NCBI GenBank assembly: GCA_902782465.1
Contig: CACZNH010000007.1
Location: forward strand, 53,687-117,686
From: an uncultured Bacteroidales bacterium
GTDB lineage: Bacteria > Bacteroidota > Bacteroidia > Bacteroidales > Muribaculaceae
Length of the DNA stretch: 64,000 nucleotides
Direction: 5' to 3'
Below are positions 2,485-10,988 of the stretch, piece after piece. Position 1 is the first letter of the stretch, and the number at the start of each line of letters is the position of its first letter. Under the pieces are notes generated by a model, which was not told the origin of the DNA, did no database searches, and worked only from the letters and a program-made list of their open reading frames with translations. A program made the position numbers and the translations under genes.

Positions 2485-3597
2485 TTAAAGATCGGGCGTA
2501 AGGGCTAAGCGTAGTCCAAGATGTCCACCGGTATCCGATGGATTCCAACCATACCGGCGTGATACTCGACAACTACTGTCACGACTGCCCCAACTACCGC
2601 CACGGCTAGCGCGTTTATTGGAATGACCTGTATCTACATCAACATAACCTTCAGAGTCATATTTGTCCTCACACCACTCCCAGACATTTCCGCTCATATC
2701 ATACAAGCCCAATTCATTTGGAGTGCCGCTGGCAACCCTATGCGTCCTGCCATCCGCATTGCCTCTGTACCATGCCACATAAGCAACCTCATTGCTGCCA
2801 GCATATTTAAACCCTTTGCTGCTATTACCTCCTCGGGCTGCAAATTCCCATTCCGCTTCTGTGGGCAGGCGAAAAGTCTTGCCAGTTATTTCGTTCAGTT
2901 TAGTAATAAACGTCTTACAATCATTCCAAGAAACACTTTCGACAGGTAGGTCTGTTTCACCATAAAAAACGCTAGGATTATCACCCATCACGGCTTCCCA
3001 CAAGGCTTGAGTTACTTGAGTCTCACCAATCCAGTAATTTGATAAAACCACTTCGTGAATAGGCTTTTCATCATCTTGAGCTTCAATAACCTGCTCGTCA
3101 GTAGCTCCCATCATAAACGTGCCGCCATAAACATAAACCATCTTGAATTCCACACCATTAACTGCAAATTCTTCAGTTGCTGACTGTACTGGACCTCCAA
3201 CAAATGGCAGCTTCACTTTTTTGGATTCAACAGTCTTGATGTGTTTTTTCTTTTCTTGCTTCTTTTGTTGTTTACGCTGTTCTTTACTTGCTGACTTTTC
3301 TTGGCTATCTTGTGAACTTGACGCGTTTCTATCGTTCTCCTCTTCCATGAAAACCACTTTTAATTCTTCCCAAAGTTTATCCTCATCTTCATAAGGCAAA
3401 TGGTTTTCAAGCTTTTGAAGAATCCTCTTTTCTTTGGTACCACCTTCGGATAGCCAATCTTTGAGTATTCCATCTTTATAAGCTGATATCAAGTCTTTGC
3501 GCAATTGAGAACCTTTATCTGACATACTTGAGAAATACTCTTTCAACTCCTCGATATCCAAGCAATACTCATTATTGATATATAGAACTGTCTTCAT
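2485..3597 (-). CDS. Cytoplasmic FGE-sulfatase/SUMF1-fold protein with an unknown N-terminal domain and a K/E/S/Q-rich linker
   Basis: The C-terminal ~230 aa carry GGTFMMG, ALWEAVMG, LPTEAEWEFAARGG, NELGLYDMSGNVWEWC and RGGSWGS...C..SRRYG...GLRLA, typical of the formylglycine-generating-enzyme fold. There is no signal peptide. Residues ~90-125 are a low-complexity linker (SSSQDSQEKSASKEQRKQQKKQEKKKH). Confidence 0.85.
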   Translation of the reverse strand: MKTVLYINNEYCLDIEELKEYFSSMSDKGSQLRKDLISAYKDGILKDWLSEGGTKEKRILQKLENHLPYEDEDKLWEELKVVFMEEENDRNASSSQDSQEKSASKEQRKQQKKQEKKKHIKTVESKKVKLPFVGGPVQSATEEFAVNGVEFKMVYVYGGTFMMGATDEQVIEAQDDEKPIHEVVLSNYWIGETQVTQALWEAVMGDNPSVFYGETDLPVESVSWNDCKTFITKLNEITGKTFRLPTEAEWEFAARGGNSSKGFKYAGSNEVAYVAWYRGNADGRTHRVASGTPNELGLYDMSGNVWEWCEDKYDSEGYVDVDTGHSNKRASRGGSWGSRDSSCRVSRRYGWNPSDTGGHLGLRLALTPDL

Positions 3598-3697
3598 CTC
3601 GTTTAATTGATGCTATATTATAATCAAATCCTTCATGCTGAAATTGCCTTAAACCAAAATATATAAGTTTCTACCAGCATACAAATCAAGCAATTCA

Positions 3698-5446
3698 CTA
3701 ATGAAACCACTTTTTAAACGTTCTTCTTCTTTTTTTGGCCGGAAGAAATCCTGGTTTTTCAGAAACCTTTTCAGAGGCATCTTTAAATTTGTACTTATTC
3801 TGCATTTCAATAATGCGCTCGATATTGGTCCATTCCTCTGGGCGTTTACGCTCTCGATTCTCAATATAATCAACACTATGCTGATTAGCCATAACTGAAT
3901 CTTTTAACGTCTCCACAGCGCGTGCAAAATCCTGTTCATCAATAGGTATCTTTGATGGAGAATCCGTCTTGTCAGAATACTCTGCAAACTTCTTCTCCAT
4001 CACCATATCAACAACACATTTTATCTCCGCGCCAGAGAAACCTCCGTACACTCCTTTCATATCTTTGACAATTCTCGCATGACACACTTCATCAGATTCA
4101 GGGAAATTAATGACAAAGATGCTATTAGGAATTTGACGGTATGGTTTAAGCGTTTTCTTTAATATATCTACACGCTCTTTGTCATTGGGAAAACCAACAA
4201 AATACACCTCGTCAAAACGGCCTTTTCTCATAAATTCAGGGCGCATCACATCATTCGCCGTGGCAACAATAAAAACAGGTGTTGAGCGTTCCTGCATCCA
4301 AGTGAGAAAATGCCCCATCAAACGCATGACCAACATATCATTATTATGACGACTGTTGCTTCCAGCAAAAGCCTTCTCTATTTCATCTATCCATAGCACA
4401 CATGGATGCGCAGCCTCGGCAGTAGCAAGAGCCTGTCTTAAATTATTCTCACTTTCGCCTACATATTTACCCATGAGGCGGCTAACATCCAAACGTAACA
4501 ACGACATTCCAAATTCATTAGCAACAGACTTTGCAATCATCGTTTTACCGCATCCAGGCATACCAATAATCAACACGCCTTTTGGAATGCTCACCTTATT
4601 TCTTTGGGCTTCACTCAAATTATTGAAAATCTTTGCTTTTCGCTTTAAATCACTCTTCAAGATTTCCAAACCACCAATCTTACTAAAGTCTTCATCTGCA
4701 TCAATAACCTCAATGATACCCGATTTGCGCACAATACTTTTTTTCTCTTCTAAAGCCAAGCGAATAGTCGTTTCCGTTATTCTGTTTCCTGTACGCACCA
4801 ATGTGGATTTTAAAATCTGCTTAATCTCATACTTCTGTAATCCATGTAAAGTACGACATAATTCCTTTCTTAAATACTCTTCTTTTTTCTTTTCATTTTC
4901 ATCCTGAGATTCTGGGACTACTTCTTTTAAAAGCTCATTAATTTCTATCTCCTCAGGAGCCTTGATATCGATGACTGTGATATATTTCTCTATTTCGCAA
5001 GGCAATGCTGTTACTGGTTGTGGGGATACTATTATAATCGTTGAGAAATGATTATATTCCTCCTTCTCATATCGTAAGGCAAACATCGTCAAAAGGCTCT
5101 GGATTCTTGGATCATGAAGAATGGAGAAATTCTTTAGTAACAAAATGGTTGGTTGGACCGAAAGTTTATTCATAACCAATTCAACCAGCAATGAATGAAC
5201 TTCCCCAAAATTATTGTAGTCATCATGGAGTTCCTTATCAGAAAAACTAACAACTTTCTGACGTCCACAATCAAATTCTATCACATTTTTCTCTAGAGAG
5301 ATATTATCAAAAACCCTATGAGGACTTTCTTGACTAATGATTCTACTCAACTGCTCTTCAATAAACTGAATGTGGAAATGAGGTATGTAAACGATAGGAC
5401 AACTCAAAATCGCTGTCATCAATTGATTCTTAAACTCCTTCTCCAT
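3698..5446 (-). CDS. Two-domain AAA+ ATPase: degenerate N-terminal half plus classical-clade AAA module and a basic C-terminal tail
   Basis: Walker A GMPGCGKT, Walker B VLWIDEIE, and a second region of homology VATANDVMRPEFMRKGRFDEVYFVGFPNDKER. The first ~290 aa have no P-loop. The tail is PAKKRRRTFKKWFH. Confidence 0.85.
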   Translation of the reverse strand: MEKEFKNQLMTAILSCPIVYIPHFHIQFIEEQLSRIISQESPHRVFDNISLEKNVIEFDCGRQKVVSFSDKELHDDYNNFGEVHSLLVELVMNKLSVQPTILLLKNFSILHDPRIQSLLTMFALRYEKEEYNHFSTIIIVSPQPVTALPCEIEKYITVIDIKAPEEIEINELLKEVVPESQDENEKKKEEYLRKELCRTLHGLQKYEIKQILKSTLVRTGNRITETTIRLALEEKKSIVRKSGIIEVIDADEDFSKIGGLEILKSDLKRKAKIFNNLSEAQRNKVSIPKGVLIIGMPGCGKTMIAKSVANEFGMSLLRLDVSRLMGKYVGESENNLRQALATAEAAHPCVLWIDEIEKAFAGSNSRHNNDMLVMRLMGHFLTWMQERSTPVFIVATANDVMRPEFMRKGRFDEVYFVGFPNDKERVDILKKTLKPYRQIPNSIFVINFPESDEVCHARIVKDMKGVYGGFSGAEIKCVVDMVMEKKFAEYSDKTDSPSKIPIDEQDFARAVETLKDSVMANQHSVDYIENRERKRPEEWTNIERIIEMQNKYKFKDASEKVSEKPGFLPAKKRRRTFKKWFH

Positions 5447-5458
5447 CTAAAAATCTAT

Positions 5459-6271
5459 TTAGGACAATAACTGAGTATTCGTTTCATCTTTGTCTTGAGG
5501 CAACTTGTCTTGAGGCAACTTGTCTTGAGGTGATTTGTCTTGAGGTGATTTGTCTTGAGGTGATCCAGTTTGTTGCAACTCGTATTGGGCTTTTTCCCAA
5601 AGTCGTTGTATTTGTAATTTTATCTTAGTTTCTGTTTTCAAAACCACATAACCAATAGCTCTTCCAACCTCTGTAGATTTCATTTCTTCGTAGTAATTAT
5701 GTAGTGTCCCTAAAGCATTATCGCAAATTTCCTTAGAGTTCATAATGAGTGATTTGCGTACTTCAATAGGAAGAATCTCCCACAAGAGTTTGCTTGTGGT
5801 ATAAATTACTGCAAAACACTTGTAACCGCTAATAATACGAATAAGACTTAATACGGTCAATGCACACTTTTTCGCTTCACTTAATTTGGCTACGATTTGA
5901 ACTAACGGTATAGCACGCTTTCGCCGATTATATTCCTGAACAGTTACAATGCCTTTTACCGTTGCATGGTATTCTAACTTTGCATAACGCATCGTCTCAC
6001 GCAAGTAGCGGGCATTCATTAATGCCACATGTTGTTTCTTATCTTCTGGTATATTTGGATTAGACCTTACCGTCATTATGGCTGCTACACTCAAGATAGT
6101 CTCGACTTTTGTTTCAATTTCGTCATCAAGTGGAGTTTCAAAATATTCAACTATAAATTTATTCTCAAAAAACTTTTCATCAATAGAGAATAACAAATAC
6201 TTGTTGTAACGACGCAAAGTGTTTATTGCCGAATAGATATTACCCAGTTGATTTAATCTACTATAACTCAT
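5459..6271 (-). CDS. Hypothetical protein with a C-terminal (S/L)PQDK pentapeptide repeat tail
   Basis: 270-aa ORF. It lies 12 nt upstream of the AAA+ start and 17 nt downstream of the preceding ORF, in the same AT-rich composition. I recognise no motif. Confidence 0.7.
   Translation of the reverse strand: MSYSRLNQLGNIYSAINTLRRYNKYLLFSIDEKFFENKFIVEYFETPLDDEIETKVETILSVAAIMTVRSNPNIPEDKKQHVALMNARYLRETMRYAKLEYHATVKGIVTVQEYNRRKRAIPLVQIVAKLSEAKKCALTVLSLIRIISGYKCFAVIYTTSKLLWEILPIEVRKSLIMNSKEICDNALGTLHNYYEEMKSTEVGRAIGYVVLKTETKIKLQIQRLWEKAQYELQQTGSPQDKSPQDKSPQDKLPQDKLPQDKDETNTQLLS
5490..5564. repeat. 5 x 15-bp tandem repeat (ttgtcttgagg + caac/tgat) inside the 3-prime end of the 270-aa ORF
   Basis: Read directly: 5490-5504 and 5505-5519 end in caac; 5520-5534, 5535-5549 and 5550-5564 end in tgat. 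It encodes SPQDK SPQDK SPQDK LPQDK LPQDK. Confidence 0.9.
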
Positions 6272-6288
6272 AACTATTGGCCTCCTGA

Positions 6289-6690
6289 TTATTCCATTGA
6301 ATCCACTTCATTTGTAAACTGTCCAATTTCCTTGACAATTGCTTTCTCAAGATTCTCCTCTATGGCTTTTTTAACGCTTTCTATATCCTTTTCAGTAGCA
6401 TCAGGAACCAACTGCTTGACTTGTCGATCCATCCATTTATCAGTATCAAAATCTGACTCTTTAAAGTCTGCCATCAGACGATGTTCTGTATTCACTTGAT
6501 TACAAATCATGCTAATAAGATCTTTCTCAATCTTATTATTTCCTTGAGATATCAACCAAGCATTTAATTCTTTATCATTTTTTCCATTAATTGTTTTAAA
6601 AAGAGAATCTGCATTTTGGGAAAAAGAATCTAAACCACCTTCAATGTAATCATTGTCAATCAGGTTCTCATCAAAAAATTCTTCTATCAT
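6289..6690 (-). CDS. Small acidic hypothetical protein (first gene of the cassette)
   Basis: 133-aa D/E-rich ORF on the same strand and with the same composition as the three downstream genes. No recognisable motif. Confidence 0.6.
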   Translation of the reverse strand: MIEEFFDENLIDNDYIEGGLDSFSQNADSLFKTINGKNDKELNAWLISQGNNKIEKDLISMICNQVNTEHRLMADFKESDFDTDKWMDRQVKQLVPDATEKDIESVKKAIEENLEKAIVKEIGQFTNEVDSME

Positions 6691-7129: not shown

Positions 7130-7330
7130 TTAGCGCTGAGTGGGGTATGTCGGGTAAGTGGGATAGTTGACGACGGTGGTTTCCTTATTCAGAATCACCA
7201 GGGCACCAATCACTCCCGGAATCCAGCCGCAGCAGGTGAGTATCGTTACAATCAAGAACGAGCCACAACCCTTGTCCAGCACAGCCAGCGGCGGGAAGAT
7301 AATCGATAATATTACCCTAAACAGTGACAT
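7130..7330 (-). CDS. YqaE/Pmp3-family small membrane proteolipid
   Basis: 66 aa with two hydrophobic helices (ILSIIFPPLAVLDKG..FLIVTILTCCGWIPGVIGALVIL), characteristic of UPF0057/Pmp3. The C-terminal tail is YPTYPTYPT. Confidence 0.8.
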   Translation of the reverse strand: MSLFRVILSIIFPPLAVLDKGCGSFLIVTILTCCGWIPGVIGALVILNKETTVVNYPTYPTYPTQR

Positions 7331-7423
7331 AGTTTTACTCCTTTCTTTTTATTAACCAAAACTCATTCCACCATACACCTGCAAATCCCATGCCAACTTC
7401 TCACCCCATCAGTTTTCGCCCAG

Positions 7424-7757
7424 GGCAACCGCACCAAAATCGGTTGTGTGCGACAAGTCATGCTGTGTGTCCAGACGCCCAAAGGGCGGCACATTGAATA
7501 ACCCCCAGTAAATCAGGCGACCGAGCGTGAGCGAGGGCACCTGATTCACTGGGGGTATAGAGGCCATCTCCTCGGGTCGCCTTCAGCGACCCCAATGTCG
7601 ATGACAAGTAAGGGGTCGCCTCCAGCGACATGGATTGTTGCATGCTTATCCCCGGGTAACGCAATCCACTTCGCTATCACTCAGCGAATTGCGTTGCCCG
7701 GGGTTACTCAGAGGCCACCCTCCGGGTGTTTTTGCGACACATTTTGGTGCGGTTGCC
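7424..7757 (+). other. Structured non-coding element bracketed by a 17-bp perfect inverted repeat (candidate ncRNA or MITE-like element)
   Basis: ggcaaccgcaccaaaat (7424-7440) is the exact reverse complement of attttggtgcggttgcc (7741-7757). Internal hairpins: 7502-7517/7540-7555 (15 of 16 bp); 7574-7580/7586-7592; 7615-7619/7625-7629; 7650-7665/7688-7703 (16 bp with one G-T) plus 7671-7675/7683-7687; and 7716-7720/7724-7728 followed by TTTTT. Strand assignment is tentative. Confidence 0.5.
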
Positions 7758-7872
7758 GTGGTTTTCTCTCTCTTTTCTTATCTATTTTGATTTTTATTAT
7801 TACCTTTGCCCTCGAGCAGTGACCACTGTCGCTGCTTGACATCGTGGATAACAATTAGCGTTGGCTATTATT

Positions 7873-7990
7873 CAAACGTTCAGAAACTTGCAGGTAGAAG
7901 AACAAACCAAAAGAATAATGGTGACGCTCACCTTGTGTGGGCGTTTCCAGTCTTTTGGTTTAGGTTTCCTGCAAGTACCTTGAACGTTGG
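7873..7990 (+). other. Long interrupted hairpin in the leader of the methyltransferase operon
   Basis: The left arm caaacgttcagaaacttgcaggtagaagaacaaaccaaaaga pairs with the right arm tcttttggtttaggtttcctgcaagtaccttgaacgttgg in three blocks (aacgttca, acttgcagg, aaaccaaaaga). Confidence 0.5.
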
Positions 7991-8091
7991 ACGGGGATTC
8001 GTCCACCTTCTGTGTCCATAGGGGTGCTTGCAGGAACGCTTTGTTTATTGGCCCAGCGCATTAATAATAACGACAACATTATTAATGCTTT

Positions 8092-9201
8092 ATGGCAAAC
8101 GAAAGTCTATCTAAGGCTAAGGAGGCCAAAAATGATGAGTTCTATACTCAATACCATGATATTGAGAAAGAAATCTCGGCCTATCTTGAGTATAACCCAG
8201 ATGTGTTCCGTGGCAAGACGGTGCTATTGCCGTGCGATGACCCCGAGTGGAGCAACTTTACCAAGTATTTTGCCCAAAACTTTGAAAATTTCGGCTTGAA
8301 AAAGTTGATTTCCACCAGTTATGCCCCCGAGAGCAAGCGGTACAAATTTGGCTATGTACCCACCCTGTTCGAGACGGAGGCACCACACTTTGATGCCGAC
8401 AAGAGCAAGACGCACGGCAAAATCTTCATCCTTGACCATGACGTGACCGGGGATGGAAAAATCAACGTCGAGGACCTGCAATGGCAATACCTGGAGGGCG
8501 ACGGCGACTTCCGCAGCCAGGAAATCTGCAACTTGCGCGATCAAGCCGATTTTATCATTACCAACCCACCTTTCTCTCTGTTCCGTCAATTCCTAGCCTG
8601 GGCTATGGACGTTGATAAAAAATTCTTAATTGTAGGCAATAAGAATGCTGTTACATATAAAGAAGTTTTTCCTCTTATCAAAGATAATAAGCTCTGGTCT
8701 GGCAGAACTGAATGGGCTGGCGGAATGTGGTTTGAGACCAAATACGAGGATGTGGATAGAGTGATCAATGGAGTAAAAATGAAAAATGTACCTTCCATCT
8801 GGTTTACTAATATTGACCATGGTCGCCGACATCAGCCATTAGCATTGATGACGATGTCTGATAATCTGAAATTTAGCAAACACAAGGAATTAAAAGGAAA
8901 AGACAGTTATTATCATTACGATAACTATGATGCAATCGAAGTTCCTTATACCGATGCTATTCCATGTGATTATGAAGGAACAATGGGAGTACCCATCTCA
9001 TTTCTTGACAAATACTGCCCCGAACAATTCGTAATAATCGGAATGGCTAAGCGAGGAGCAGGGGACCCAGCATTAAAAAGCAAAGTATATACTAAAGAAG
9101 ATTATCCAAATTACAGTGATTTAAACGCTACACCTGTGATTATCACTGATGGAGTACCTAAAAATACTTATCCCAGAATTTTAATCCGCAAAAAACAATA
9201 A
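8092..9201 (+). CDS. N6-adenine (amino) DNA methyltransferase, EcoRI-methylase-like family
   Basis: N-terminal NDEFYTQ motif, LLPCDD and the catalytic FIITNPPF (motif IV). The family assignment is from memory of PF13651-type proteins. Confidence 0.85.
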   Translation: MANESLSKAKEAKNDEFYTQYHDIEKEISAYLEYNPDVFRGKTVLLPCDDPEWSNFTKYFAQNFENFGLKKLISTSYAPESKRYKFGYVPTLFETEAPHFDADKSKTHGKIFILDHDVTGDGKINVEDLQWQYLEGDGDFRSQEICNLRDQADFIITNPPFSLFRQFLAWAMDVDKKFLIVGNKNAVTYKEVFPLIKDNKLWSGRTEWAGGMWFETKYEDVDRVINGVKMKNVPSIWFTNIDHGRRHQPLALMTMSDNLKFSKHKELKGKDSYYHYDNYDAIEVPYTDAIPCDYEGTMGVPISFLDKYCPEQFVIIGMAKRGAGDPALKSKVYTKEDYPNYSDLNATPVIITDGVPKNTYPRILIRKKQ

Positions 9202-9207
9202 GACGAT

Positions 9208-10368
9208 ATGGAAGCGATATTAAGGACTGATATTACCGTTCGCGACATCTGCGAGGGCTTTATCTATAACGAGTTGGAGGGCAAGGGCCTGTTTGGAATG
9301 AATGGAAAATTAACCATCCAACCCGAATACCAACGCAACTACATTTATGCCGACGGCAAAAAGGATGTCGCTGTCATCGATTCGGTACTGAAAGGTTATC
9401 CGTTAGGGGTTATGTACTTTAACCAAGTGGGTGACGATTATGAGGTGCTTGACGGGCAGCAGCGCATCACGAGCCTGGGCCGCTTTGTGACCCACAAACT
9501 TGCCATCAAGGACAAGAACGGCATGCAGCAATACATTGACGGCCTCAACGAGGAAGACCGCGACAAGGTGCTCAACACCCGTCTGCTCATCTACATCTGC
9601 AAGGGCACCGAGAGTGAAATCAAGGAATGGTTCCAAACCGTCAACATCCCTGGCGTGAACTTGAACAATCAGGAAAAACTCAATGCCGTCTATTCGGGAC
9701 CGTTTGTGACCGCTCTTAAAGAAGAATTCAGCAACTCACAAAACGCCAATATCCAAAAGTGGAGTGCCTATGTCAAGGGCTCGGCCAACCGTCAGGACTA
9801 TCTTGAGCGTGCCCTGCAATGGGTAAGCCAGGATAATGTGGATGCCTACATGAGCAAGCATCGACAAGATACCGACATCACTCCAGTCAAGGTTTATTTC
9901 AATGCCGTGATTGATTGGGCTTCAGGCGTGTTCAAGGATGTGCTGCCCGAGATGCGCGGCCTGGAATGGGGGCGATTCTATGAGGAGTACCACAACAAGC
10001 CTTACAATGTGGACGCCGTCTCCAAGCGTGTGCATGAACTGTATGCCGACCCCTATGTGACCAACCACAAGGGCGTGTTTGAGTACATCCTGGGCGGCGA
10101 GCAGGATGCTAGCCTGTTGAACATCCGCGTGTTTGACCGTGCGACCATCAACCGCGTCTATGCCAAGCAGACCGAGAAAGCCAAGCAAAAAGGCGTGAGC
10201 AACTGCCCCGACTGTGCGCTGCAAGAGGGCGGCAACAGCACCCGCATTTGGAAACTTGCCGAGATGGATGCCGACCACGTCACGGCATGGAGCAAGGGAG
10301 GCGCCACCAACGAGTCCAACTGCCAGATGCTGTGCAAGCACCACAACCGCTCCAAGGGCAACAAATAG
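9208..10368 (+). CDS. DUF262 (ParB/Srx-fold, GmrSD-N-like) protein with a C-terminal HNH nuclease domain
   Basis: IQPEYQRNY and LDGQQRITSL motifs in the N-terminal half. The C-terminus is CPDC...DADHVTAWSKGG..NESNCQMLCKHHNRSKGN (HNH). The start is 7 nt after the methyltransferase stop. Confidence 0.85.
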   Translation: MEAILRTDITVRDICEGFIYNELEGKGLFGMNGKLTIQPEYQRNYIYADGKKDVAVIDSVLKGYPLGVMYFNQVGDDYEVLDGQQRITSLGRFVTHKLAIKDKNGMQQYIDGLNEEDRDKVLNTRLLIYICKGTESEIKEWFQTVNIPGVNLNNQEKLNAVYSGPFVTALKEEFSNSQNANIQKWSAYVKGSANRQDYLERALQWVSQDNVDAYMSKHRQDTDITPVKVYFNAVIDWASGVFKDVLPEMRGLEWGRFYEEYHNKPYNVDAVSKRVHELYADPYVTNHKGVFEYILGGEQDASLLNIRVFDRATINRVYAKQTEKAKQKGVSNCPDCALQEGGNSTRIWKLAEMDADHVTAWSKGGATNESNCQMLCKHHNRSKGNK

Positions 10369-10397
10369 ACACTAAATAGCCAGAAACAATTTCTTCA

Positions 10398-10481
10398 CAC
10401 GAATGGCCATCAATGGCCATGAATGGAACATGAATAAAATATTATTGATGACCATTCGTGGCCAATTCACGGTCATTCGTG
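10398..10481. terminator. Long imperfect palindrome downstream of the HNH gene (terminator/REP-like)
   Basis: cacgaatggccatcaatggccatgaatgg faces ccattcgtggccaattcacggtcattcgtg. The arms are about 30 nt with a few mismatches. Confidence 0.5.
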
Positions 10482-10520
10482 TTCTAATACACATTACCGA
10501 CTACTTTGAAAATTTCATAA

Positions 10521-10585
10521 AAAACTAATATTTTTAGTTTTATTAACTAAAATAATTTGTTTTATAACTAAAACATTTAGTTAAT
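10521..10585. promoter_or_regulatory. Cluster of AACTAAA/TTTAGTT inverted boxes upstream of blaI-like gene (candidate operator)
   Basis: aaaactaa (10521-10528) pairs with ttagtttt (10534-10541). attaactaaa (10542-10551) pairs with tttagttaat (10576-10585). There is an extra ataactaaaa at 10564-10573. Confidence 0.35.
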
Positions 10586-10619
10586 TTGCGTCGTAAAACT
10601 CAAAAAGGCCCATTGAAAT

Positions 10620-10988
10620 ATGAAACAGTTAACAAACAAAGAAGAGGAAATCATGGAGCACATGTGGGACAAAGGCCCCATGCTGGTGCGCGAACTGCAA
10701 GCCTGCTACGACGAGCCCCGCCCCCATGTGAACACCTTGGCCACATTGATGAAGATATTGGAAGAGAAAGGCTTCCTGGGCCACAAGGCAATTACCGCCC
10801 GCTGCTTCCAGTATTTTGCCCGCATCAGCCGCGAGGAGTATCGCGGCGGCTCGTTGACCAATGTGGTCAACAAGTTCTTCGGCAAGTCCTACCTGAGCGC
10901 CGTCTCGGCCCTTGTCAAGAGTGAAAAGGTCAGCATCGACGACCTGAAGGAACTCATTCGCGAAGTGGAACAGAACAACCAACAGTAA
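10620..10988 (+). CDS. BlaI/MecI/CopY-family transcriptional repressor
   Basis: 122-aa winged-helix protein (EEEIMEHMWDKGPMLVRELQ...VNTLATLMKILEEKGFL) directly upstream of an M56 peptidase gene. Confidence 0.85.
   Translation: MKQLTNKEEEIMEHMWDKGPMLVRELQACYDEPRPHVNTLATLMKILEEKGFLGHKAITARCFQYFARISREEYRGGSLTNVVNKFFGKSYLSAVSALVKSEKVSIDDLKELIREVEQNNQQ

Follow-up and report, generated by a model that had tools for sequence, protein, structure and literature searches.

The window analysed here, a 64,000-nucleotide (nt) stretch of contig CACZNH010000007.1 (assembly GCA_902782465.1) from an uncultured Bacteroidales bacterium, carries on its plus strand a DNA adenine methyltransferase gene followed within a few nucleotides by a gene for a nuclease that combines an N-terminal DUF262 domain with a C-terminal HNH domain. 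The window's copy of this pair is a real, intact and very mobile cassette of the restriction-modification (R-M) type and an ordinary member of a large family. Taken together, the comparative results make it likely that the pair follows the logic of classical R-M systems, in which N6-methyladenine (m6A) would mark self DNA and the nuclease would attack unmarked DNA, the DUF262 domain serving as a switch, a helical middle domain as the reader and the HNH domain as the cutter. DUF262 proteins are currently described as modified-DNA sensors (GmrSD, BrxU, SspE and Dazbog). The interest of the present system lies in an architecture of that kind apparently being turned to classical restriction, since here it is tied to a methylase and has the genomic context of a classical restriction enzyme.

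Layout of the gene pair

The features of the locus are as follows.

8092..9201, plus strand: EcoRI-family N6-adenine DNA methyltransferase, 369 amino acids (aa); open reading frame (ORF) with stop codon TAA at 9199-9201
8563-8574, plus strand: NPPF catalytic motif of the methylase, residues 158-161; from the sequence
8500..9230, plus strand: recombinant block (3' two-thirds of the methylase gene and the junction); from sister-strain comparison and composition
9202..9207, plus strand: 6-nt spacer GACGAT that separates the methylase stop from the nuclease ATG; from the sequence
9208..10368, plus strand: DUF262-HNH nuclease, 386 aa, putative restriction endonuclease; from the ORF, PADLOC and an AlphaFold2 (AF2) model
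9313..9693, plus strand: DUF262/GmrSD_N domain of ParB/Srx fold, residues 36-162, with PEYQR (39-43) and DGQQR (82-86); from Pfam PF03235
9700..10200, plus strand: all-helical middle domain, residues ~165-331, without a Pfam family; from AF2 secondary structure
10204..10365, plus strand: zinc-ribbon HNH domain, residues 333-386, CxxC...DH...N...CxxxC...HHN; from Pfam PF01844
7349..10518, no strand: present/absent cassette comprising a miniature inverted-repeat transposable element (MITE), the methylase, the nuclease and a 3' spacer; from a metagenome contig joint

Both ORFs lie on the same strand at 8092-9201 and 9208-10368, exactly as the initial annotation had placed them. The distance of 7 nt that it gave for the two genes is obtained by subtracting the coordinate of the methylase stop from that of the nuclease ATG; six nucleotides (GACGAT) lie in between. 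So short a gap would imply an operon, in which translation of the nuclease is probably coupled to that of the methylase. At 55-125 nt ahead of the methylase start there is a 14-nt inverted repeat (7966-7979 / 8023-8036) enclosing a hairpin at 7988-8005, and this 7966-8036 structure might serve the operon as an operator or as a leader. A gene for a controller (C) protein is absent. Rfam and tRNA scans of the upstream gap gave no match, and a sigma-70 promoter scan, using a model not fitted to Bacteroidota promoters, found sites no more often than in shuffled sequence.

An EcoRI-family methylase

The Pfam model EcoRI_methylase (PF13651) spans the full methylase with E=1.6e-119 (399.7 bits against a gathering cut-off of 26.4), and the PADLOC model MTase_II PDLC03297 matches it with E=3.8e-83. 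When compared with M.EcoRI, for which the genuine copy located beside R.EcoRI on an E. coli plasmid served as reference, the protein is 43% identical over residues 2-320, and the identity is the same in both halves. A methylase with a catalytic (D/N)PP(Y/F) motif and AdoMet-binding motifs is one of the features of a type II system, and it is represented here by NPPF at residues 158-161 and the full-length PF13651 match. Across the family, the identities of the N-terminal and C-terminal halves of the methylases are often discordant, indicating that mosaicism is common. This mosaicism does not follow the divergence of the nucleases: identity in the methylase C-terminal half and identity in the nuclease middle domain are correlated with a Spearman coefficient of 0.20, and paired switching of specificity receives no support from the family comparison.

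A DUF262-HNH nuclease

The domain assignment of the initial annotation holds for the second protein. GmrSD_N/DUF262 (PF03235) matches residues 36-162 with E=2e-19 and HNH (PF01844) matches residues 333-386 with E=3e-7, and the motifs it quoted are all found (DGQQR at 82-86, DHV at 356-358, N371 and HHN at 378-380). The catalytic residues of the HNH domain are D356-H357, N371 and H379-N380, and its zinc-ribbon cysteines are arranged as C333-x2-C336 and C372-x3-C376. A DUF1524/GmrSD_C domain (PF07510) gave no Pfam match in the nuclease at E<=0.1, and the middle region (residues ~165-331) has no Pfam match.

An exhaustive HMMER search for relatives of the nuclease returned 4273 representative clusters at E<=1e-3 and 407 at E<=1e-30, with full-length relatives mostly of 360-420 aa. 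In an alignment of 93 family sequences, reaching down to 32% identity, Q42, R43, D82, G83, R86, E156, W237, R307, F309, C333 and H357 are invariant and Q84, Q85, C336, D356, N371 and C376 are nearly so; within the helical middle domain the invariant or near-invariant positions are R195, Q196, W205, W237, F242, W254, R307 and F309. The nucleotide-pocket motifs of the DUF262 domain and the active site of the HNH domain are conserved and both are therefore under selection. Conservation of the predicted nucleoside triphosphate (NTP) pocket together with the HNH residues suggests an NTP-gated restriction enzyme.

An AF2 model built from the 93 diverse sequences has a mean pLDDT (predicted local distance difference test) of 92.6 and a pTM (predicted template modelling score) of 0.61, and supersedes an earlier model from 32 close homologues (pLDDT 67.7). 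It consists of a mixed alpha/beta N-terminal domain, an all-helical middle (~165-331) and a beta-beta-alpha C-terminus. The top Foldseek match in the PDB is BrxU (7p9k, E=3e-3), followed by the N-terminal domains of ParB and Noc bound to CTP or CDP (probability 0.92-0.98, with 0.96-0.98 for the ParB structures), and the Gme HNH nickase (4h9d, probability 0.97) matches the C-terminal domain; no solved type II restriction endonuclease was among the matches of the model to the PDB. These whole-chain E-values are weak and fit a new combination of known domains. Sequence searches of the PDB, both single-sequence and profile-based, gave no usable match, the best being at chance level (BrxU, E=0.46); a profile alignment does place PEYQR and DGQQR of the nuclease on the equivalent motifs of BrxU. 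In BrxU and SspE the NTP pocket sits at DGQQR, and NTP binding or hydrolysis governs conformation and nuclease activity (PMC10952713). The DUF262 domain of the present nuclease is predicted to be an NTP-binding switch, and the helical middle is a candidate DNA-recognition or methyl-reading module.

Linkage of methylase and nuclease across genomes

A profile-guided scan of species-representative genomes yielded 452 confirmed nuclease relatives, the best 80 of which are 62-70% identical to the window's protein. Relatives occur in Bacteroidota, Ignavibacteriota, Chlorobiota, Chloroflexota, many Patescibacteria, Melainabacteria, Bacillota, Actinomycetota, Pseudomonadota, Spirochaetota, Planctomycetota, Verrucomicrobiota and Armatimonadota, and they include bacteria of the candidate phyla radiation (CPR) and one DPANN archaeon. 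With the window methylase as query, the 71 genome loci whose upstream sequence reaches at least 1 kb were examined; 70 of them have an EcoRI-family methylase ahead of the nuclease on the same strand, and these loci come from more than 12 phyla. The sole exception (L078) has a Fic gene directly upstream of the nuclease and then the end of the contig; in the genome loci a solitary nuclease was seen only where the contig stops. Even a relative of only 34% identity has an EcoRI-family methylase upstream. The tight spacing of the two genes goes beyond chance because it is a property of the whole family: the stop-to-start distance, taken over 82 loci, has its mode at -4 nt (the ATGA overlap, 28 loci) and falls within -35..+20 in 69 of them.

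The pair is also found on mobile DNA. A tblastn search of plasmids detected the nuclease at 41-63% identity in Moraxella, Enterococcus faecium, Macrococcoides, Chryseobacterium, Gordonia, Pseudarthrobacter and others, and some of the carrier plasmids measure only 9-10 kb. In all annotated cases (the Moraxella, Enterococcus, Macrococcoides, Gordonia and Pseudarthrobacter plasmids) an EcoRI-family methylase stands immediately upstream on the same strand; the methylase of the Chryseobacterium plasmid is unannotated and was detected by tblastn only, as a match in two pieces. Flavobacterium phage laban6-1 carries the pair as a moron on the opposite strand, and one protein of 688 aa is a fusion of EcoRI_methylase, GmrSD_N and HNH. 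Cultured carriers of the cassette include E. faecium BN83 (pBN83-1), Moraxella osloensis NBRC 115781, Pedobacter alpinus KCTC 42456, Gillisia mitskevichiae DSM 19839 and Maribellus sediminis Y2-1-60. A lack of conservation of the two genes together had been named by the initial annotation as a result that would speak against a functional pair; their co-occurrence across phyla, on plasmids, in a phage and in a fusion is the opposite outcome. Separate, adjacent methylase and nuclease genes that travel together are a further feature of type II systems, and the stand-alone gene typical of GmrSD is absent, the nuclease being essentially obligately linked to the methylase.

At six loci other genes lie between the methylase and the nuclease, namely Fic, AlbA_2/HATPase_c_4 and Bro-N genes and a NUMOD4/HNH_3 gene of homing type (L043, L078 and L094 are among the carriers), and the junction seems to be a favoured landing site for other selfish genes. 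At L094 the cassette is followed by a canonical GmrSD (GmrSD_N and GmrSD_C).

Local history of the cassette

In the window the cassette has a GC content of 37-56%, lower than the 57-62% of the host genes around it; a Pmp3 gene borders this stretch on one side, and blaI/blaR-like genes adjacent to gyrB border it on the other. A single contig in metagenome run X1 passes straight from 7348 to 10519, omitting 3170 nt, and thus represents a cassette-free allele. The cassette of ~3.2 kb is therefore a present/absent polymorphism, and it has no integrase. Imperfect direct repeats of 20 nt accompany the joints, the left copy (7342-7361) straddling the left joint and the right copy (10533-10552) lying just outside the right one.

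Metagenome contigs encoding an identical BlaI protein bear the same cassette at the same site (sister-strain locus L096). Both flanks of this locus are 97-100% identical to the window, in contrast to 37-84% DNA identity across ~8500-9230. The L096 methylase has 377 aa against 369 aa in the window and is identical over residues 1-142, and its nuclease is 98.7% identical. The divergent block has a GC content of 38% as opposed to 48% in the 5' part of the methylase gene. By this comparison, 8500-9230 is a recombinational allelic replacement of the 3' two-thirds of the methylase gene relative to the sister strain. The closest metagenomic relative (L092) has the same discordance, with 95% identity in the N-terminal half of the methylase and 64% in the C-terminal half. 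A present/absent cassette, a nuclease 62-70% identical across phyla and a mosaic methylase beside a stable nuclease are selfish or mobile traits typical of R-M systems.

Two smaller variable segments were observed within the cassette. An ORF-free insertion of 364 nt at 7397-7760, missing from L096, has 21-nt terminal inverted repeats (7420-7440 / 7741-7761) and a very strong fold on either strand (z = -10 and -11). At least 120 metagenome contigs contain a 20-mer from its end, frequently at their termini, and in 18 of those contigs the repeats bracket an element of ~1.4 kb encoding a 364-aa transposase, which looks ISAs1-like. Judged by these sequence features the insertion is a MITE; a structured RNA gene at 7397-7760 was considered and rejected, given that the strong fold belongs to the MITE and that Rfam has no match there. 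The second is the 10369-10504 spacer that follows the nuclease stop. It holds a 17-nt inverted repeat (10398-10414 / 10444-10460), is skipped by contigs of two runs (joint 10368->10505) and aligns poorly to L096; it is a second small indel and may be a hairpin acting as terminator or a further small repeat of the mobile kind.

Run X15 carries the label RNA-Seq PolyA. Over 7300-10700 its contigs, depths and variants are identical to those of DNA run X14 from the same sample; the RNA label is therefore unreliable and the run says nothing on transcription. Upstream of the cassette, on the minus strand, lies another block of low GC content (2485-6690, 29-43%). Its genes encode a protein with an FGE-sulfatase domain, an AAA+ ATPase of 582 aa with an ATPase core that resembles PADLOC IetA models (E=5e-22), a protein of 270 aa with SPQDK/LPQDK pentapeptide repeats at its end and a protein of 133 aa without a family. 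The block may be another acquired defence-like cluster.

Cataloguing and literature

The nuclease matches PADLOC model REase_II PDLC03418 ("Type II restriction enzyme") with E=7.8e-88 over model positions 5-372 of 372, and such a match to a model of catalogued type II endonucleases is another feature of type II systems. The next PADLOC matches concern the N-terminal part only, Menshen NsnA at residues 32-184 and PD-T4-2 A at residues 32-215; in one relative (P0245) the NsnA model aligns with residues 30-360 (E=8.6e-32). The relatives that score best against PDLC03418 (P0279 and P0321) are nameless in all sources. ApoI, AcsI or MluCI (AATT-core enzymes from Micrococcales) might belong to the family. 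Nuclease relatives carry the public names "DUF262 domain-containing", "GmrSD domain", "HNH" and "McrA".

No account of a DUF262-HNH enzyme linked to a methylase turned up in our literature search, which took in GmrSD phylogenomics, a classification of His-Me fingers, two reviews on R-M systems and one from 2023 on DUF262 proteins in defence. The 2023 review treats GmrSD, BrxU, SspE, Menshen, Dazbog and PD-T4-2, and a methylase-linked DUF262-HNH protein is not among them (PMC10952713). A Paracoccus "HNH R-M" paper was rejected as a description of the family, as it concerns an unrelated 16-kDa protein. The term "non-canonical", which the initial annotation applied to the pair, holds only with a qualification. 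The pair is already catalogued as type II in an apparently REBASE-derived library, by a PADLOC model that spans the nuclease, and thousands of relatives are present in the protein database; on the other side, no publication describing the pair was found and its mechanism appears unstudied in the literature covered.

Proposed mechanism and alternatives

In the mechanism that we propose, the EcoRI-family methylase would mark a short host motif with m6A, and the nuclease, whose start codon follows within a few nucleotides on the same message, would cut DNA that lacks this mark. Like its counterparts in BrxU and SspE, the DUF262 domain would bind and hydrolyse NTP and act as a switch of conformation, the helical domain would probably read both the site and its methylation state, and the HNH domain would cut. 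The nuclease would thus be a GmrSD-type machine in reverse, with modification blocking it instead of being required. The strict, tight and sometimes fused linkage to the methylase, together with carriage on plasmids of 9-10 kb and in a phage, argues that the nuclease is harmful without its methylase, which is the logic of classical R-M systems. Two readings had been offered at the outset, a type II-like system in which m6A protects self DNA and a modification-dependent nuclease that spares its partner's mark, and from the comparative genomics we infer the first. As regards NTP, a requirement arising from the predicted DUF262 pocket is plausible and would set the enzyme apart from type II enzymes that need only Mg2+. 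The fuller proposal, an NTP-gated ParB-fold restriction enzyme acting in the classical direction, in which NTP binding or hydrolysis by the DUF262 domain licenses HNH cleavage at sites without the partner's m6A, is held more tentatively, and we rate its chances at somewhat below even.

Several points weigh against the classical direction. To our knowledge, all characterised DUF262 nucleases sense modified DNA. The label of PDLC03418 may stem from a REBASE prediction rather than from biochemistry. On plasmid B of Microbacterium sp. No. 7 (L223, NZ_CP012699.1 29068-30818) the methylase has been cut to 188 aa by IS256 and the nuclease beside it retains all of the invariant residues, an arrangement not predicted by strict R-M logic, barring a silent nuclease or protection by a second methylase. 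Palindrome avoidance in 895 kb of host flanks gave no AATT-core signal (observed/expected ratio of 0.75 for GAATTC and 0.93 for AATT), the only depletion being the generic one of GGCC, CTAG and GATC. The methylase motif probably contains an AATT core, a guess taken from the 43% identity to M.EcoRI; m6A motifs with such a core (AATT, RAATTY and GAATTC) are frequent in published methylomes, and none is tied to this methylase gene.

The plasmid with the truncated methylase is also among the observations that fit a type IV enzyme, a nuclease dependent on modification like GmrSD and BrxU, whose partner methylase would add a mark that is not attacked or would have another role, for example protection from the enzymes of other hosts. 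The N-terminal domain does belong to the GmrSD_N family, BrxU is the best structural match, relatives are often named "McrA" or "GmrSD domain protein" in the sources, and the canonical GmrSD beside the L094 cassette indicates that both types share defence islands. Type IV enzymes, however, stand alone, whereas the methylase here is essentially obligate, on the same strand, usually overlapping and once fused; the C-terminal domain is a PF01844 HNH and not DUF1524, and the full-length PADLOC fit is to a type II model rather than a type IV one. We therefore regard type IV behaviour as unlikely. An SspE-like arrangement, in which host m6A would stimulate the NTPase of the nuclease and unmarked invader DNA would be nicked or cut, so that the mark is both licence and shield, seems about equally improbable. 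SspE is described as a DUF262 nuclease with a dedicated host modification system whose mark activates the NTPase (PMC10952713; PMC9646914), and the NTP-pocket motifs are invariant in the present family. Binding of m6A by the nuclease is nevertheless without support, SspE has a DUF1524 domain, is far larger (771 residues, PDB 7drr) and matches only weakly in Foldseek (E=0.37), and a simple methylase-to-nuclease operon, a fusion protein and carriage on small plasmids resemble ordinary type II cassettes.

The mobility of the cassette allows one further explanation, namely that the HNH protein is mainly of homing type and spreads the cassette to empty sites, the methylase protecting occupied genomes and defence being secondary. 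It would account for a nuclease that is 62-70% identical across phyla, CPR bacteria and a DPANN archaeon included, for a 3.2-kb present/absent cassette without an integrase and for the other selfish genes found between methylase and nuclease at several loci. Insertion sites vary by genome, however, with no common homing site evident, and selfish spread is already known for ordinary R-M systems and is compatible with restriction; we consider this explanation very improbable. Classical restriction by an m6A-blocked nuclease remains the account that we favour.

Significance

If the NTP-gated version of classical restriction is true, this very widespread family would be an evolutionary link from GmrSD enzymes of type IV to R-M systems of the ordinary kind. 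DUF262 would then be a general nucleotide switch rather than a sensor of modified DNA, and the role of the module would need to be re-read. The automated labels "DUF262", "McrA" and "GmrSD" steer users to what is probably the wrong (type IV) behaviour. Carriers of the cassette include Bacteroidales from gut and rumen, resistance plasmids of enterococci, CPR bacteria and a phage, and it is thus likely to be a frequent obstacle both to DNA transfer and to the genetic manipulation of these organisms.

Comparison with known systems

With GmrSD and BrxU the nuclease shares an N-terminal DUF262 domain of ParB/Srx fold with QR and DGQQR motifs, BrxU being its best match in the PDB, and a C-terminal His-Me-finger nuclease. 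Their C-terminal domain is DUF1524, whereas a classical zinc-ribbon HNH (PF01844) is found here in a protein ~200 residues shorter, and they stand alone and require modified DNA, in contrast to the obligate methylase linkage of the present nuclease. Judged by sequence, it thus has the DUF262/DGQQR feature of GmrSD and lacks DUF1524 and the stand-alone gene. The SspABCD-SspE system likewise pairs a DUF262 NTPase-nuclease with host DNA modification and targets unmodified DNA (PMC10952713). It differs in that its mark is phosphorothioate made by four proteins rather than m6A made by a single methylase, and in that SspE carries a DUF1524 nuclease domain instead of HNH, with the weak structural similarity given above. 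Menshen NsnA and PD-T4-2 A have the DUF262 domain in common with the nuclease, and NsnA also the following helical region according to PADLOC matches; their PADLOC models cover DUF262 and the helical region and not HNH, and they have other partner proteins, with no methylase partner listed (PMC10952713).

Among type II systems, EcoRI resembles the present pair in having a methylase of the same Pfam family (43% identity) and in being a two-gene cassette on mobile DNA. The gene order there is nuclease to methylase and here the reverse, and R.EcoRI is a PD-(D/E)XK enzyme (PMC4081073) unrelated to the nuclease described here. KpnI, Hpy99I, PacI and MnlI are similar in having a partner methylase and an HNH core whose cysteines hold a structural zinc (PMC4081073). 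For none of the HNH type II enzymes that they name do the reviews mention an NTP-binding domain of ParB/Srx fold such as the one predicted in the present nuclease. At the level of the genes, the features of a type II system are present in this methylase and its DUF262-HNH nuclease.

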